DNA of 64,000 nucleotides from a virus, in IMG/VR virus record IMGVR_UViG_3300003937_000247. The stretch is one strand, 5' to 3'. Below the pieces are notes generated by a model. That model searched no databases and was not told the origin of the DNA. It saw nothing but the letters and a program-made list of their open reading frames with translations. The translations under genes were made by a program, and so were the position numbers. Shown here piece after piece: positions 9,989-60,932 of this stretch. Numbering within the stretch: position 1 is the stretch's first letter; every line of letters begins with the position of its first letter.

Positions 9989-10064
9989 GCTGCTTTAGCT
10001 CAGCTGGTAGAGCAACTGATTTGTAATCAGTAGGTCCGCGGTTCAAGTCCGTGAAGCAGCACCA
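9989..10064 (+). tRNA. tRNA-Thr(UGU)
   Basis: Acceptor gctgctt/aagcagc plus encoded ACCA, D arm gctc/gagc, anticodon arm actga-tttgtaa-tcagt, T loop gttcaag. Confidence 0.96.
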
Positions 10065-41051: not shown

Positions 41052-41690
41052 TTGGCTATTCAGTTTTTTATTCTAATGAAAAAAAATATAATTAAAAAAG
41101 ATAAAACTTTATTATTATTAATTGAGTTTGAAGGCGTTCCAGAAGCACAAGCCGACAATCTACTTGATGAGATTAGGTATAGTTATCTAAAAAGATTACT
41201 ATTTGAGCACCCAGCAACTTCTTTACTTATTCTATCAGACCACCGAAGAGCAAATACTAGAATAGCCGCAATATTAGATCATTTACAAGATAGTAGAAGA
41301 ACACATACACATTCCATTGTGAATATTACACCAATCAAAACAACAATGGAAGATATCTACTCTATAGCAGATGTCCAAGGTTATAATATTCAGAATGTTA
41401 TTGTAGCAGGTTGTAATACAACAGGTTGTGTCTTTGAATCTATGCCTTATTCAGCAGTAAAATGGGCTCAAGCAGGCCATTTTGTACAGATAGTATTACC
41501 AATGTGTGGTGACGCTGACATACACGGTATAGGTCCTGAAAAATATATAAGATCATTTGCTCGTTTATATAAAAAAATTAAAAAGGCTAATGTTTTTAAA
41601 AATGTTGAAATAGTAAGTGAACTTCATACTGTGTTGCATTTTAATAATGGTGTGCAATCTAACAGATTTGATATAGAACCTAAAATTTAA
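41052..41690 (+). CDS. isochorismatase-like hypothetical protein
   Basis: VIVAGCNTTGCV resembles the cysteine hydrolase motif; start uncertain. Confidence 0.45.
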   Translation: MAIQFFILMKKNIIKKDKTLLLLIEFEGVPEAQADNLLDEIRYSYLKRLLFEHPATSLLILSDHRRANTRIAAILDHLQDSRRTHTHSIVNITPIKTTMEDIYSIADVQGYNIQNVIVAGCNTTGCVFESMPYSAVKWAQAGHFVQIVLPMCGDADIHGIGPEKYIRSFARLYKKIKKANVFKNVEIVSELHTVLHFNNGVQSNRFDIEPKI

Positions 41691-43317
41691 TAGTATAGAC
41701 GTTTATAGGTTCTTCTTTACCTTTTACTTTAATCTCATCAATATATTTAAAATTAAATCTTTCAAATAAAGGTTCTCTAGTATTTTCAGATATAACAATA
41801 TCTTGTCCTAAAGTTTTACTTGAACTTTCCAATCTACTTGCTAAATTAACAGCGTCTCCTATTACTGAATAATCAAACCTTTGTTCAGACCCCATATTAC
41901 CTACAAGACATTGACCAGTATTGATACCTATACCTATGTTTAAAGGTGGATCAAACTCTTTAGTTTTATTCATTAATGCTAGTTTTTGTTTCATCTCTTT
42001 AGCAGATTTAACTGCCATCTCTCTATGATTTTTACAATCTAATGGTGCGTTCCAAAATGCCATAATACAATCACCCATATACTTGTCTATTGTCCCTTCA
42101 TTTTTTAATATAATATTTGTCATTGCAGTTAGAAACTTATTAACATAACGAGTAAGTTGTTCAGGATTATCTTTAAACCTTTCCGATATAGGAGTAAAAC
42201 CTCTAATATCTGAAAATAAAAATGTTAATTCTTTTCTTTCCCCACCTAGTTTTAATAGAGAAGGATCTTTTTGTAATTTTTTAACCATACCAGGTGCAAG
42301 GTAATGCTCAAATTGTTTTTTGATTTGTAGTTTTAATCTATTCTCTCTAGCAAAATTATTATAGATTAAATGAGACCATATAATACTTCCTATAATCATA
42401 GGAGTTATCCAATCAACCATTATCATATGTTGAGTCCATAGATAACCACTTGCAAGTGCTATATCAAAATAGAAACCTACTAAACATAATGCAGACCATA
42501 GTAATCCTAATCTAGGCATTATAATCAAAAGGAATAATAAAGCAATTATAGTTATTCCTATTTCACTTATATACAACCAATTAGGTCTTGTAATAAACTT
42601 ACCAGACAATAAAGTTTCTGTTGACAATGCCATTATTTCGTGTGTGTTTTTTAAACCGTTTGGAGTAAGAACGAAAGTAGAACCTTTAAAGGTTGTTCCA
42701 ATAAAAACTATTTTACCCTTCATAGATGACCAATCTTTATCAGTATAATCTATTCTAGGTATCTGGTGTCTGAAATCAATCCAAATATCGTCTTGGTTAG
42801 GTATTGGAAATTTAATGACTTTCAGTATAACACTTGGGACGGATTTGTCAAGCGGTAATTTTCTAATAGTACCATCAATATCAATAGGCACTTCTACATT
42901 TCCTACAGCAAGTGCTTTTCTCTCTATACTTTTTAGGTTTTTTGCTTGACTTGTTTCAGTTAATATGATAGGGTACTTGGTAATCATCTTCAAAAACATT
43001 TCATCACCACCTAATCTATCTTTATGTACAAAGACTACATTTAAGAAGACTAGAGCTGCACCATTTTTATATGCGTTGATTATAGTACGACCTAATAAAT
43101 CTCTTTTCCAAGGCCATTGACCAGATTTAACTAAAGCTTCATCCGAAATATCCAGGAGTACTAGACTTTTGGATTCGTAGTTATTCCCAAAATTTTGATA
43201 ATTATCTAAAGCAGAAAGTCTTGTTTTTTGTATCAATACAGGATTAGAAATATAGATTATAATCAATATTAAAGCAATCATCCATACAGACCATTTATTA
43301 GTTAGCAGTTTTATCAT
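41680..43317 (-). CDS. CHASE2-domain class III adenylate cyclase
   Basis: N-terminal TM, GQWPW.R and D.DG.IR (CHASE2), three TMs, FSDIRGFT, DKYMGD, GIGINTG, DYSVIGDAVNLASRLES; Lys/Asp pair indicates ATP specificity. Confidence 0.93.
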   Translation of the reverse strand: MIKLLTNKWSVWMIALILIIIYISNPVLIQKTRLSALDNYQNFGNNYESKSLVLLDISDEALVKSGQWPWKRDLLGRTIINAYKNGAALVFLNVVFVHKDRLGGDEMFLKMITKYPIILTETSQAKNLKSIERKALAVGNVEVPIDIDGTIRKLPLDKSVPSVILKVIKFPIPNQDDIWIDFRHQIPRIDYTDKDWSSMKGKIVFIGTTFKGSTFVLTPNGLKNTHEIMALSTETLLSGKFITRPNWLYISEIGITIIALLFLLIIMPRLGLLWSALCLVGFYFDIALASGYLWTQHMIMVDWITPMIIGSIIWSHLIYNNFARENRLKLQIKKQFEHYLAPGMVKKLQKDPSLLKLGGERKELTFLFSDIRGFTPISERFKDNPEQLTRYVNKFLTAMTNIILKNEGTIDKYMGDCIMAFWNAPLDCKNHREMAVKSAKEMKQKLALMNKTKEFDPPLNIGIGINTGQCLVGNMGSEQRFDYSVIGDAVNLASRLESSSKTLGQDIVISENTREPLFERFNFKYIDEIKVKGKEEPINVYTIKF

Positions 43318-59597: not shown

Positions 59598-59856
59598 AAT
59601 CCAAATATACTCAAAGCCTAATTGTACTTATTGTACAAAATCAAAACACTTGATGAAAACGTTAGGCTTTGAATACGAAGAACATATGTTTGGGAAAGAT
59701 TTTACTACACCTGAACAGTTATTTGAGGCAATAGGTAAACAAGTACGAACTATGCCTCAAATTGTTATAGAAGATAAACATATCGGCGGCTATAACGAAT
59801 TAATAGAGTATTTTGCCGATAAGAAGTTAGTAAATTACAAAGGTGAAAAAATATAA
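59587..59856 (+). CDS. nrdC: glutaredoxin
   Basis: YSKPNCTYC, RTMPQI, HIGGY. Confidence 0.92.
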   Translation: MSSKIQIYSKPNCTYCTKSKHLMKTLGFEYEEHMFGKDFTTPEQLFEAIGKQVRTMPQIVIEDKHIGGYNELIEYFADKKLVNYKGEKI

Positions 59857-60268
59857 TATGAGTGATGATGGACAATTAGAATTTGATTTTGGGTTAGAAT
59901 CTAAAATACCCGATAATGTAATATTATTTCCTAAAATACCTTTACGAAGACCTAATTGGGCACAACAAAAATTAGACGCTAAAAAACAAGATATGTTGAG
60001 AAGACAACACAATCAGGTTTACGTACAGGCCATTACAGAACAATTAACTGAACAGATGTTATTAAGATTAAGAGAAGAAAACATTAACATAACAACAAAA
60101 GAATTTTTAAGTGACTATAAGTTGTCACTAGAGGCGCTTAAGTCTATGTTGCTTAGGGCAGTACATATGAAACACCCATTACAACAACGTGTAGATAGGG
60201 CGGTCAAATGTAAACAAGGAGAAGGTAAGGACGTATATGCCATTACCATTGACTATAACAAATTTTAA
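59843..60268 (+). CDS. hypothetical protein
   Basis: DNVILFP and HPLQ motifs. Confidence 0.65.
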   Translation: MKKYNMSDDGQLEFDFGLESKIPDNVILFPKIPLRRPNWAQQKLDAKKQDMLRRQHNQVYVQAITEQLTEQMLLRLREENINITTKEFLSDYKLSLEALKSMLLRAVHMKHPLQQRVDRAVKCKQGEGKDVYAITIDYNKF

Positions 60269-60505
60269 ATTAGATAACAATATGCGTAACATTTATATAA
60301 TTGCAAATATATTAATCTGTCTGGCTGAACATAGTTTAAGAGGACTAAACGCATGGACAAGGAGGGTTATGGGCGAATGCCTGAAGACACCTTGGGCAGT
60401 TTTGAGTAGGGACCTATCTTGCAATAGATGGACTCTTCCTGGAAGATTGTGGGTGAGTTCCAACAAATCCCACGACAGACACATATTGTTATCTAATTTA
60501 AAATT
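60261..60505. repeat. perfect 24-bp inverted repeat enclosing a structured RNA
   Basis: aattttaaattagataacaatatg (60261-60284) / catattgttatctaatttaaaatt (60482-60505). Confidence 0.9.
60316..60479 (+). ncRNA. multi-stem structured ncRNA (possibly manA-motif class)
   Basis: GC-rich island; closing tctgtc/gacaga; stems tagttt/ggacta, caagg/ccttg, ggc-gaat-gcc, gagt/actc, gtggg/cccac; family assignment is from memory only. Confidence 0.65.
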
Positions 60506-60599
60506 ACAGAATTCCATAAAGCACTTTGGGATAATTGCTAGTACTGGCAAAGTTAGCAATTCTAATTATAATGCCACAATAGAAAAGGAGATTTAAACA

Positions 60600-60932
60600 A
60601 TGTTTAAATTTTTATTTAAAAACGACTCATTAAGAGTTGTATCAAAATCTAAAAGAAAATCTACTAGAGGTAGAAAAACTTTATCAAAAAGAGTTAAAGT
60701 TTTAAATCTTTTAAACAAAGGCGAATCTGTTACTTGGAAGACTTTAAGAAGCAGATTTGATCTAGTGTCTCCAAGAGCACTAGTTGACACATTGAGATCA
60801 GAAGGTAATATGATCTATGTTAACAAATCAGCAAAAGGAACATCTTATAGAATAGGTGAACCTACAAAAGCGATAATCGCTGCTGGGATCAAAAAATTAT
60901 ATGGTACTCCGTACGCATATAAAACTGCCTAA
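60600..60932 (+). CDS. winged helix-turn-helix DNA-binding protein
   Basis: Basic N-terminus; VLNLL..G..VTW.TL...F...SPRA.VD.LR.EG..I. Confidence 0.7.
   Translation: MFKFLFKNDSLRVVSKSKRKSTRGRKTLSKRVKVLNLLNKGESVTWKTLRSRFDLVSPRALVDTLRSEGNMIYVNKSAKGTSYRIGEPTKAIIAAGIKKLYGTPYAYKTA

Follow-up and report, generated by a model that had tools for sequence, protein, structure and literature searches.

manA, the described RNA that the element reported here resembles, has been an orphan motif since 2010, when Weinberg et al. rated it as probably cis-regulatory (PMC2864571); it is classed as cis-regulatory in Rfam and has been treated as a riboswitch candidate. Other described systems are comparable in setting rather than in sequence. 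GOLLD and ROOL are structured, phage-carried RNAs embedded in tRNA arrays (PMC5737381), and the gene 32 translational operator of T4 and RB69 is a pseudoknotted fold at the 5' end of an early leader (PMC535899).

The element studied here lies in a 64,000-nt stretch of viral DNA (IMG/VR record IMGVR_UViG_3300003937_000247), which we refer to as the window. A reading made from the sequence alone had described it as an RNA of roughly 165 nt enclosed by inverted repeats. We compared it with its homologues in other viral contigs, with the manA model and with related loci from which it is missing.

A conserved structured RNA enclosed by an inverted repeat, on comparative evidence

The perfect 24-bp inverted repeat that had been claimed is real and extends to 27 nt (60261-60287 and 60479-60505; 96% complementary, with 24 perfect pairs and one C.A mismatch within the 27 nt, and an inter-arm distance of 191 nt). 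As had also been noticed, the left arm contains the TAA stop codon (60266-60268) of the upstream ORF, and ACA is present at both outer ends (60258-60260 and 60506-60508). The perfect 24-mer occurs at two places only in the window, while shuffled sequences predict 0 occurrences. Since eleven IMG/VR loci share the repeat, with sequence variants and compensating changes, it is not an assembly artefact, a possibility that the earlier reading had named as a refutation; these loci come from nine contigs and nine different IMG samples, and the window is additional to them.

The enclosed segment has a G+C content of 44 to 50%, compared to about 30% in its surroundings. The folding energy of the element is low (z = -4.4), but this is owed to the repeat alone (z = +0.56 for the core by itself), and the case for structure therefore rests on comparison between sequences. 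In an alignment of 72 sequences, 94.5% of the cells were paired, versus 35 to 46% when the structure was slid along the alignment, and compensatory changes were found at 44 of 63 pairs; RNAalifold counted 29 compensatory pairs out of 56. Helix P1 (60280-60287/60479-60486) encloses helices running from 60292 to 60478 (Table 1). The element is thereby, as judged from covariation, a genuine conserved structured RNA. Both the multi-stem structure and the higher G+C content proposed for 60316-60479 were borne out, although the RNA bounded by P1, at roughly 200 nt, is larger than the 165 nt first assigned to it.

A pseudoknot is present as well, but not the ggaa/ttcc pairing suggested earlier: TCC at 60438-60440 pairs with GGG at 60409-60411, with covariation, and the pseudoknot forms between AAGAG and CUCUU. 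It covaries over the 72 sequences, one pair being AU in 52, CG in 14 and UA in 6 of them and another alternating between AU and UA. The loop of hairpin Pa contains a palindromic hexamer, TTGCAA (60301-60306), replaced by TTCGAA in other lineages. The most conserved part of the RNA is the almost invariant interior of P3 (GAGGGUUAUGGSCGAAUGSCUGAAGACAC), which we presume to be the functional core.

Table 1. Features of the element and its flanks (positions in the window)
Feature	Position	Strand	Basis or remark
Upstream 141-aa ORF	59843..60268	+	Stop codon within left arm
Left arm of repeat	60261..60287	+	5' strand of extended closing helix; homologous to -10/leader/P1 of canonical copies, e.g., L133
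Segment missing from empty-site relatives (240 nt, boundaries ambiguous by 1-2 nt)	60268..60507	+	Filled versus empty alignment
Family-wide P1, inner 8 nt of left arm	60280-60287	+	Structure alignment
Open frame overlapping the RNA, AUG in P1 5' strand	60282..60596	+	Stop codons depleted
Hairpin Pa (60292-60299/60308-60315)	60292..60315	+	7/7 pairs changed on both sides
P2 5' strand CTGTC, pairs with GACAG 60474-60478	60317..60321	+	5/5 pairs covary, 97.5% paired
Stem 60324-60326/60350-60352 and hairpin 60332-60335/60344-60347, conserved loop TTAAGAGG	60324..60352	+	Covariation helices
Pseudoknot 5' strand AAGAG, pairs with CUCUU 60433-60437	60338..60342	+	5 bp, 100% paired
P3 (60354-60374/60379-60398)	60354..60398	+	9 pairs covary, 99.3% paired
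Helix 60409-60411/60438-60440 around variable hairpin 60413-60419/60425-60431 and pseudoknot 3' strand 60433-60437	60409..60440	+	Covariation
Hairpin P6, GUGGG...CCCAC	60449..60473	+	Matches manA consensus UGUGGGUA..AAUCCCACC
Right arm of repeat	60479..60505	+	3' strand of extended P1
Window-specific 6-nt insertion AATTAC	60502-60507	+	Extends pairing into end of upstream CDS
Promoter-like CTGGCA-17-TATAAT for 110-aa gene (60600-60932)	60544..60572	+	Also in empty-site relatives

Homologues beside gene 32 and their relation to manA

More than 100 homologues of the RNA were found in marine T4-like (pelagimyophage) viral contigs. A degenerate 26-mer matched 112 stretches in viral contigs; searched with it, the genomes of 185,579 prokaryote species gave no match. 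A single 16-mer from the RNA found 36 loci, and phage HTVC008M carries a homologue as well. A megablast search with the 56- to 64-kb part of the window against a phage collection gave no match, and in the literature on pelagiphage noncoding RNAs or a gene 32-linked marine RNA we found no description of this RNA.

The approximately 100 copies outside the window's lineage all lie, wherever their flanks are present, in the interval between a 286-aa gene and gene 32 (ssb); a few loci are truncated where their contig stops, and in some a 55-aa ORF or rubrerythrin comes in between. At this canonical site, the RNA directly follows a sigma-70-type early promoter, with the gene of about 286 aa on one side and gene 32 on the other. 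Such a promoter precedes 78 of 78 unique canonical copies and none of 8 relocated ones. The gene that follows the RNA varies and may be ssb, the 55-aa ORF, rubrerythrin or another small gene. In some canonical copies, a ribosome-binding site lies within about 10 nt of the 3' strand of P1, and in HTVC008M-type phages an A-rich unstructured tract runs from the RNA to the ribosome-binding site. Gene 32 is absent from the window.

The resemblance to manA had been noted from the sequence alone, with a search against Rfam as the proposed check. Two scans at E<=10 left the window copy without a match, and only a tRNA reached the gathering threshold in the window. The similarity surfaced only on scanning homologues, three of which (L038, 26.6 bits; HTVC008M, 25.9 bits; L151, 22 bits) aligned over the full manA model (RF01745, positions 1-192 of 192) at scores below the Rfam gathering score of 55.2. 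The manA E-value was 6.8e-6 per genome for HTVC008M and 4e-5 on a 351-nt stretch. Reciprocally, a model built from our own alignment matched the manA of Pelagibacter phage Mosig EXVC030M weakly (8.5 bits, E 0.003; 451 nt, filters off). This bona fide manA (64 bits) is flanked by a 282-aa gene and by rubrerythrin/ssb, and ahead of it lies a near-identical promoter and leader (TTGACA..TATATTAATAAACAATGC) that is common to L140 and L195. The resemblance appears real, as indicated by the full-length matches and by the Mosig manA at the orthologous site, but it is distant.

Both RNAs are found in marine T4-like phages and have the same architecture: a 5' hairpin, a long-range helix that closes a multi-stem junction (P2 here, the helix written [[[[[ ]]]]] in the manA model) and a 3' hairpin (UGUGGGUA..AAUCCCACC). 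They also have junction nucleotides in common (UGnCUGAAnAA and UGGCUGAAC...AAAC/GUAAGG). However, they differ in the interior of P3, where manA has three small hairpins and the RNA described here has one hairpin with an invariant 30-nt internal loop. Additionally, the RNA described here contains the covarying loop pseudoknot and the outer closing helix P1, which the Rfam model of manA lacks. To our knowledge, neither long flanking inverted repeats nor relocation has been described for manA. On the basis of these alignments, we read the element as a divergent manA-like subfamily, a branch specific to pelagimyophages.

A relocated copy without promoter

In the window's lineage, which comprises the eleven IMG/VR loci and the window, the RNA lies about 10 kb from the canonical site, lacks the promoter and stands right behind a stop codon; in the sister contigs L010 and L135, it is about 10.5 kb away from gene 32. 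The insertion point falls exactly between the stop of the 141-aa ORF and the promoter region of the 110-aa gene. Aligning orthologous loci, as had been proposed in search of an empty site, revealed a discrete insertion, 234 nt long in the other relocated copies. The RNA is present in 3 of the 80 loci having the 110-aa gene, and 77 of them are clean empty target sites. The boundaries of the insertion are symmetric with the ends of the arms.

Five long related contigs gave no match in a DNA search for the RNA, which was repeated as a pattern search with HTVC008M as the control. At the canonical, or donor, site, no RNA is present in L010, in L135 or in G001, which is a complete genome, and the sequence of the empty donor site, TATATTA|TAATG, is a short palindrome. 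G001 lacks the RNA at both sites but retains that promoter and leader of gene 32. Simple cut-and-paste within one genome and loss of the RNA followed by its re-acquisition from another phage are equally possible, and the relocated copies have a mosaic composition.

The sequence-only reading had considered ACA a 3-bp target duplication. This is rejected, because the right-hand ACA derives from the window-specific AATTAC insertion and is absent in the other relocated copies. TTAA, present at both ends of the insert and once in the empty site, might be the only candidate for such a duplication. Being palindromic, it is equally readable as an extension of the repeat, and the flanking TTAA evolves to TTAG/CTAA as a pair rather than as a repeat.

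The genes around the element are co-oriented, and no promoter was found within or just before it. A candidate within the element (ATAACA-16-TATAAT, 60274-60301) was discarded: it would deprive the RNA of P1 and of half of hairpin Pa, and L132 has not conserved it. Since the RNA has no promoter of its own at this site, it is presumably cotranscribed with the 141-aa ORF.

The long stem as a probable processing device

The inverted repeat is an outward extension of the closing helix P1. The left arm derives from the former -10/leader/P1 region, being near-identical to that of the canonical copy at locus L133, and the right arm is the complement. The stem measures 25 bp in the relocated relatives; in the window it reaches 27 bp and holds a single mismatch. 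Across the relocated copies, 94.6% of the stem is paired. Both sides have changed at four pairs, compared to 1.4 in shuffles and 0 when slid, and one mismatch at an inner position is retained in 8 of 8 relocated variants. At canonical sites, the length of the closing stem forms a graded series of 9, 11, 13, 15, 17, 20, 24 and 28 bp; several of the long stems carry G.T wobbles on the + strand, and in the longest ones (L140 and L167) the 5' arm overlies the -10 hexamer of the promoter. An origin of the right arm by fold-back priming on the 5' leader at relocation was considered and is weakened, as canonical copies already have stems of 17 to 28 bp.

We explain these data best, with a probability of about 0.55, by a manA-branch RNA gene that has been relocated, is released from a message by its stem and acts in trans. 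The relocated RNA would be transcribed as part of the upstream polycistronic message, in which the fully transcribed 25- to 27-bp duplex would serve as a processing and/or stabilizing stem. Host RNase III could cut this stem, as it does with rRNA precursors and T7 early mRNAs, or, alternatively, the stem could block exonucleases; the RNA would be released in either way. Its action in trans would then rely on the pseudoknot and on the invariant interior of P3, with a protein or a small ligand as a possible binding partner. We infer an action of its own, in trans, from the retention of the RNA when uncoupled from gene 32 and from a bona fide manA in cyanophage S-B43, which lies flush between tRNA-Arg and tRNA-Thr.

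Substrates of RNase III present a duplex of at least two helical turns around a structured RNA in a polycistronic transcript, with an internal mismatch. Here too, a duplex of at least 20 bp is formed from both flanks of a structured RNA. The stem differs from the rRNA precursor and T7 stems in being AT-rich and in lying partly over coding sequence, its cleavage is only predicted, and similar palindromes occur at canonical sites, where the local promoter leaves half of the stem untranscribed. Because the relocated copies are all without promoter, some release device is needed, and the favored reading of the long stem, which the sequence-only reading had offered as one of two options, is that it is probably an RNA-processing device.

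The repeat could instead be chiefly a DNA-level palindrome without a role in the RNA, which would leave the enclosed RNA functional; such a palindrome could have aided excision and insertion of the cassette, e.g., by hairpin or cruciform cutting. In T4-type genomes, intrastrand template switching during replication enlarges quasi-palindromes and makes them perfect (Ripley-type templated mutation), and the graded series of canonical stems speaks for this reading. In L140 and L167, where the 5' arm overlies the untranscribed -10 hexamer, a transcript started at that promoter cannot contain the arm, so the repeat may in part be a palindrome of the DNA and not a feature of the RNA. Furthermore, the 6-nt insertion in the window complements the pre-existing end of the upstream CDS, a signature of templated extension, the empty donor site resembles the outer remnant of such a stem, and both boundaries of the insertion match the ends of the arms symmetrically. 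The compensatory switches, too, could result from arm-to-arm templated correction and not from selection. However, the G.T pairs in several long stems pair in RNA and are mismatches in DNA, the inner mismatch common to all relocated variants should have been erased by arm-to-arm correction, and the relocated copies are all promoter-less. We therefore hold a purely DNA-level role to be conceivable but doubtful.

Cis-regulation, transposition and coding

Besides our preferred reading of a processed, trans-acting RNA, we asked how the data fit a cis-regulatory leader, that is, a riboswitch or gp32-bound operator for gene 32 or the small gene that follows, which in the window would be the 110-aa gene. 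Canonical copies do occupy the 5' portion of an early transcript that carries gene 32 or a short ORF, sometimes with the ribosome-binding site within about 10 nt of P1, and the invariant internal loops resemble a binding pocket, all of which would suit the cis-regulatory classification of manA. At canonical sites, the RNA is, like the T4/RB69 operator, a pseudoknotted fold at the 5' end of an early leader, and the A/U-rich unstructured tract of HTVC008M-type phages resembles that operator; but the RNA is about six times larger, has no sequence relation to it and often has another gene between itself and gene 32.

Moreover, in the window's lineage a 92-nt spacer, containing the next gene's own promoter, separates the RNA from the start codon, and the RNA is fully conserved there although uncoupled from gene 32. 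The downstream genes and the distances to them vary among copies, neither a conserved expression platform nor a terminator was found, and a 27-bp P1 could not switch. The manA of S-B43 is outside any 5' UTR, and G001 retains the gene 32 promoter and leader without the RNA. Overall, the RNA does not seem to regulate the gene behind it in cis, and we consider such a role unlikely.

The sequence-only reading had also proposed a MITE-like mobile cassette. In such a nonautonomous transposon, a transposase would recognize the terminal repeats, the RNA would be cargo and the target site would be duplicated. Like MITEs and other IS-derived elements, the element is a short noncoding insertion of 234 to 240 nt whose two ends fall exactly on inverted repeats. 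Of 80 related loci, 77 are empty, and 4 bp may have been duplicated (TTAA on both sides versus a single TTAA when empty). Unlike MITEs, it has one known insertion site: when 2.9 million viral contigs were scanned with the arm sequence, the repeat-bounded form turned up at one site only, the remaining true matches to the arm pattern being canonical-site copies, and the window holds a single copy. One further match, in L136, was due to chance. The arms are native to the cargo, coming from the -10 box, leader and P1 of the RNA gene and not from a foreign terminus, and they evolve by compensation; the changes of TTAA to TTAG/CTAA are likewise compensatory and not duplicative, and ACA is not conserved. 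A generic MITE is thus very unlikely, given the one site for all repeat-bounded copies and the origin of the arms.

Finally, the conserved sequence might encode a small protein of about 60 to 100 aa to which the RNA structure is secondary, as one frame, annotated as gp008 in HTVC008M, is open over a median of 80 codons (versus 12 in the other two) with 2 distinct stop-codon variants (8.5 expected; other frames as expected), an AUG in the 5' strand of P1 in about two-thirds of the copies, a few nucleotides from the predicted transcription start, and an insertion length that is a multiple of 3; yet this is highly improbable, and the open frame in the window is probably not a conserved protein, considering that codon periodicity is lacking (column entropy, 0.40/0.39/0.51 and, over a longer span, 0.56/0.56/0.59), amino acids vary freely at covarying base pairs, the C-terminal third is in three different frames depending on the lineage (ORFs end after 36 to 140 codons), HTVC008M-type copies have no AUG, no Pfam or PHROG family matches, and the 30-nt invariant block shows no synonymous variation over 72 sequences.

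Implications for manA-family RNAs

These data add to manA a large pelagiphage branch that is below the detection of Rfam 15, with a well-supported fold including a pseudoknot, and define its transcription unit, driven by an early promoter of consensus type immediately upstream of gene 32. Two natural experiments, the relocated promoter-less lineage and the manA between cyanophage tRNAs, point to a self-standing RNA. If so, tests for a protein partner or an in-trans phenotype make more sense than ligand screens. The question can be tested directly, since each of the two variants is found in a cultured SAR11 phage, HTVC008M or Mosig, and both occupy the same locus.

The position of the S-B43 manA flush between two tRNAs is like that of GOLLD and ROOL, and these are phage RNAs released from multi-gene transcripts. 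GOLLD and ROOL are far larger and unrelated in sequence, and the element gave no Rfam match to them.

We tentatively propose, as a suggestion that goes well beyond the locus, that manA-family RNAs are not riboswitches but autonomous, early, trans-acting phage RNAs, portable as cassettes with interchangeable release devices and moved by palindrome-mediated excision and re-insertion. If this holds, release would be achieved by the RNA's own promoter and a short P1, by flanking tRNAs or by a long RNase III-type stem, and the long stem would have been built by palindromic extension of P1. The graded growth of P1 to a palindrome of 24 to 28 bp, seen alongside an empty donor site and the empty target sites that match it, also offers a natural example of the shuffling of a noncoding gene in T4-type genomes.

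A conserved, pseudoknotted, manA-like RNA

Comparison across 72 distinct sequences bore out the structured noncoding RNA proposed by the sequence-only reading. A 75%-identical counterpart of its core lies between gp007 and the ssb gene of Pelagibacter phage HTVC008M, where a 56-aa "gp008" is annotated. A conserved 16-mer retrieved 46 viral contigs, 36 of them with true homologues, and a degenerate 26-mer gave 112 matching stretches in viral contigs and none in 185,579 prokaryote species (one genome each). We tested ten helices, taken from an RNAalifold prediction plus a pseudoknot spotted by eye, on the alignment of these 72 sequences (A4), using partners slid by 1 to 3 columns as a control. 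Pairing was found in 94.5% of the cells versus 35 to 46% in the slid controls, 44 of 63 pairs changed on both sides, and the covariation score was 0.48 versus 0.07 to 0.10. The pseudoknot, AAGAG/CUCUU, was paired in all 72 sequences, with A-U, C-G, and U-A at one position and A-U and U-A at another. It replaces the ggaa/ttcc pseudoknot suggested earlier, which we rejected: TCC pairs with an upstream GGG, and that pairing covaries. The direction of the promoters and the many G.U pairs place the RNA on the plus strand. These data show a conserved, pseudoknotted RNA.

In the 5' hairpin, Pa, the loop invariably consists of a self-complementary hexamer (UUGCAA or UUCGAA); this GC-to-CG swap leaves it palindromic, a pattern expected of either a kissing-loop dimer or a binding site with dyad symmetry. 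One copy (L012) joins a 5' half of the L038 type to a 3' half and flank of the HTVC008M type. The strands of its closing helix, P1, are mismatched because the halves come from two RNA lineages, and it is either a recombinant or a chimeric assembly.

The resemblance to manA (RF01745), an orphan motif with no function assigned (PMC2864571; PMC9964418), held through homologues of the window copy, which itself had no Rfam match even at an E value of ≤10. The full model matched L038, HTVC008M, and L151 at 26.6, 25.9, and 22 bits, below the cutoff of 55.2 (per-genome E value for HTVC008M, 6.8e-6). In these alignments, the homologues have in common with manA a 5' hairpin, a long-range helix, the UGnCUGAA/GUAAGG junction, and the UGUGGGUA..AAUCCCACC hairpin. 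Moreover, the canonical site described below is occupied in Pelagibacter phage Mosig EXVC030M by a bona fide manA scoring 64 bits, with a promoter and leader near-identical to those of related loci L140 and L195, which argues decisively for the relation. Because our covariance model R1 gave the window copy 216 bits and the Mosig manA only 8.5, we assign the RNA to a divergent subfamily that is manA-like but falls outside the family by the Rfam criterion.

Locations of features in the window and in related loci
Feature	Location	Strand	Remark
tRNA gene	window 9989-10061	+	Rfam, 73 bits; sole window match at gathering threshold
545-aa ORF	window 41680-43317	-	matches phrog_35576; sole long minus-strand ORF, the rest read left to right
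Upstream ORF	window 59843-60268		TAA stop at 60266-60268
Repeat arms	window 60261-60287 / 60479-60505
Open frame	window 60282-60596	+
Core	window 60288-60478
Pa loop	window 60301-60306		A4 columns 31-36
Pseudoknot	window 60338-60342 / 60433-60437
P3 hairpin	window 60354-60398		near-invariant interior
Conserved spacer stretch	window 60508-60533		before 110-aa gene
Dyad	window 60538-60562		TTGCTA...TAGCAA
RNA-less spacer, G001	L210:1370-1490
RNA-less spacer, L010	L010:300-430
Two-lineage RNA copy	L012:5625-5874
tmRNA	L140:5866-6166	+	Rfam permuted tmRNA, 105 bits; beta_tmRNA, 91 bits
S-B43 manA	L217:1058-1268	-	82.5 bits

Relocation of the RNA without its promoter

The window belongs to a T4-like phage, with genes for DNA polymerase, clamp loader, DnaB-like helicase, and NrdAB. 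At about 100 homologous loci, the RNA is placed between a gene of about 286 aa and gene 32 (ssb), occasionally with a 55-aa ORF, rubrerythrin, or another small gene intervening. Upstream of every one of the 78 unique canonical copies are a TTGACA-like box, a 16- to 18-nt spacer, and a TAnnnT box, the latter ending 7 to 21 nt before P1, so that transcription is predicted to start at the foot of P1. In many, the T4-type late promoter TATAAATA follows the RNA. From this layout we infer that the RNA is a product of the early promoter and is not part of late gene 32 transcripts. In a related pelagimyophage-type contig (L140), a tmRNA lies about 3.5 kb upstream of the manA-like RNA.

Neither gene 32 nor the 286-aa gene was found in the 64-kb window. 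In sister contigs L010 and L135, both lie about 10 kb downstream of the RNA copy, and the canonical spacer keeps the early promoter and TATAAATA and lacks the RNA. The 110-aa gene downstream of the element is encoded at 80 loci, of which 3 have the RNA; the remainder show a clean empty site joining AAATTTTA directly to AGAATTCC, while filled sites read TTTTAA-ATTAG...CTAAT-TTAA-AGAATTCC. TTAA occurs once in the empty site and stands at both element ends in filled ones, but it is a palindrome and behaves as part of the stem. The trinucleotide ACA does lie beside both repeat ends in the window; its reading as a target duplication was rejected, as the right-hand ACA belongs to a 6-nt insertion, AATTAC, present only in the window. 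Through this insertion, the right arm gained complementarity to the end of the upstream gene, which was already there.

A scan with the arm sequences recovered the same arrangement in further contigs, at one site only, and also canonical copies L133 and L128, whose -10/leader/P1 sequence TATATTAGATAACAATATGCGTAA nearly equals the left arm. The left arm therefore represents the old promoter-proximal leader and P1; the -35 box stayed behind, as did half of the -10 box. The 8 unique relocated copies all lack a promoter, and relocation of the RNA without it is shown. These copies are mosaics that draw on different canonical types. The complete 165.7-kb relative G001 has the RNA at neither site (the same search recovered the HTVC008M control); hence, the history may be loss followed by reacquisition rather than a jump within one genome.

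In G001 and L010, the spacer before gene 32 retains both promoters, the early one and TATAAATA, along with a short palindrome (TATATTATAATG); this RNA-less spacer resembles a scar left by deletion of an RNA gene bounded by a stem. Ahead of the 110-aa gene, the spacer carries AGAATTCCATAAAGCACTTTGGGATA, near-invariant across relatives with varying flanking genes, next to a dyad overlapping a predicted promoter, and these may form an operator for the 110-aa gene product.

The inverted repeat is a prolonged P1

The inverted repeat was confirmed and extended to 27 nt with one mismatch, its outer 24 nt being perfectly complementary; the 24-mer has no further copy in the 64 kb and none in shuffles. 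The stop codon of the upstream ORF falls inside the left arm, and the enclosed segment has a G+C content of 44 to 50% against a background of roughly 30%. Folded alone, the whole element is very stable (z = -4.4 and -5.5 on the two strands) because of the repeat, as the core alone gives z = +0.56. Folding thermodynamics are uninformative on the interior, and the case for structure therefore rests on sequence comparison.

The repeat is an extension of P1. In the 8 distinct relocated copies, pairing across the 27 stem positions is 94.6%, with one inner position mismatched in all 8. Both partners changed in four pairs (two A-U/G-C switches, one U-A/A-U, and one A-U/C-G), versus 1.4 in shuffles and 0 in slid controls; one switch includes the stop codon, TAA becoming TAG opposite a change from TTA to CTA. 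A 25- to 27-bp duplex of the RNA flanks is thus maintained. A rival reading is that templated mutation of the DNA itself lengthens the palindrome. In its favor, closing stems range from 9 to 28 bp in canonical copies of the same RNA clade, and in two of them (L140 and L167) the 5' arm spans the -10 box itself, which is the main caution on a purely RNA-level role.

Translation of the locus into a conserved protein is unlikely, even though one frame across the window and homologues stays open over a median of 80 codons, compared with 12 for the other frames. Its distinct stop codon variants number 2 against an expectation of 8.5, while the other two frames show the numbers expected, and in about two thirds of the copies it has an AUG in the 5' strand of P1 near the predicted transcription start. 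However, codon periodicity was not found, amino acids vary freely where pairs covary, the final third is read in three frames across lineages, HTVC008M-type copies lack the P1 AUG, and Pfam and PHROG gave no family match. Ribosomes could conceivably still pass through the 5' half of the RNA.

Proposed role of the RNA

At its new site, the RNA would be cotranscribed with the genes upstream. The duplex, whose length suffices for RNase III, would release or stabilize it, in line with the processing stem envisaged earlier. By analogy, release from precursors is probably normal for the manA-like family, since a bona fide manA of Synechococcus phage S-B43 sits flush between tRNA-Arg and tRNA-Thr (spacers of 0 to 1 nt) inside a six-tRNA-gene array, where tRNA-processing enzymes would set its ends. 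The RNA is conserved even where it is no longer coupled to gene 32, and some relatives do without it; together, these observations favor an accessory, trans-acting RNA over a leader that controls the following gene. The near-invariant interior of P3 and the self-complementary UUGCAA/UUCGAA hairpin loop are the obvious candidates for contacts. Overall, a known orphan motif is represented here by a new variant that Rfam does not detect, in an unusual form that is relocated and clamped by a stem.
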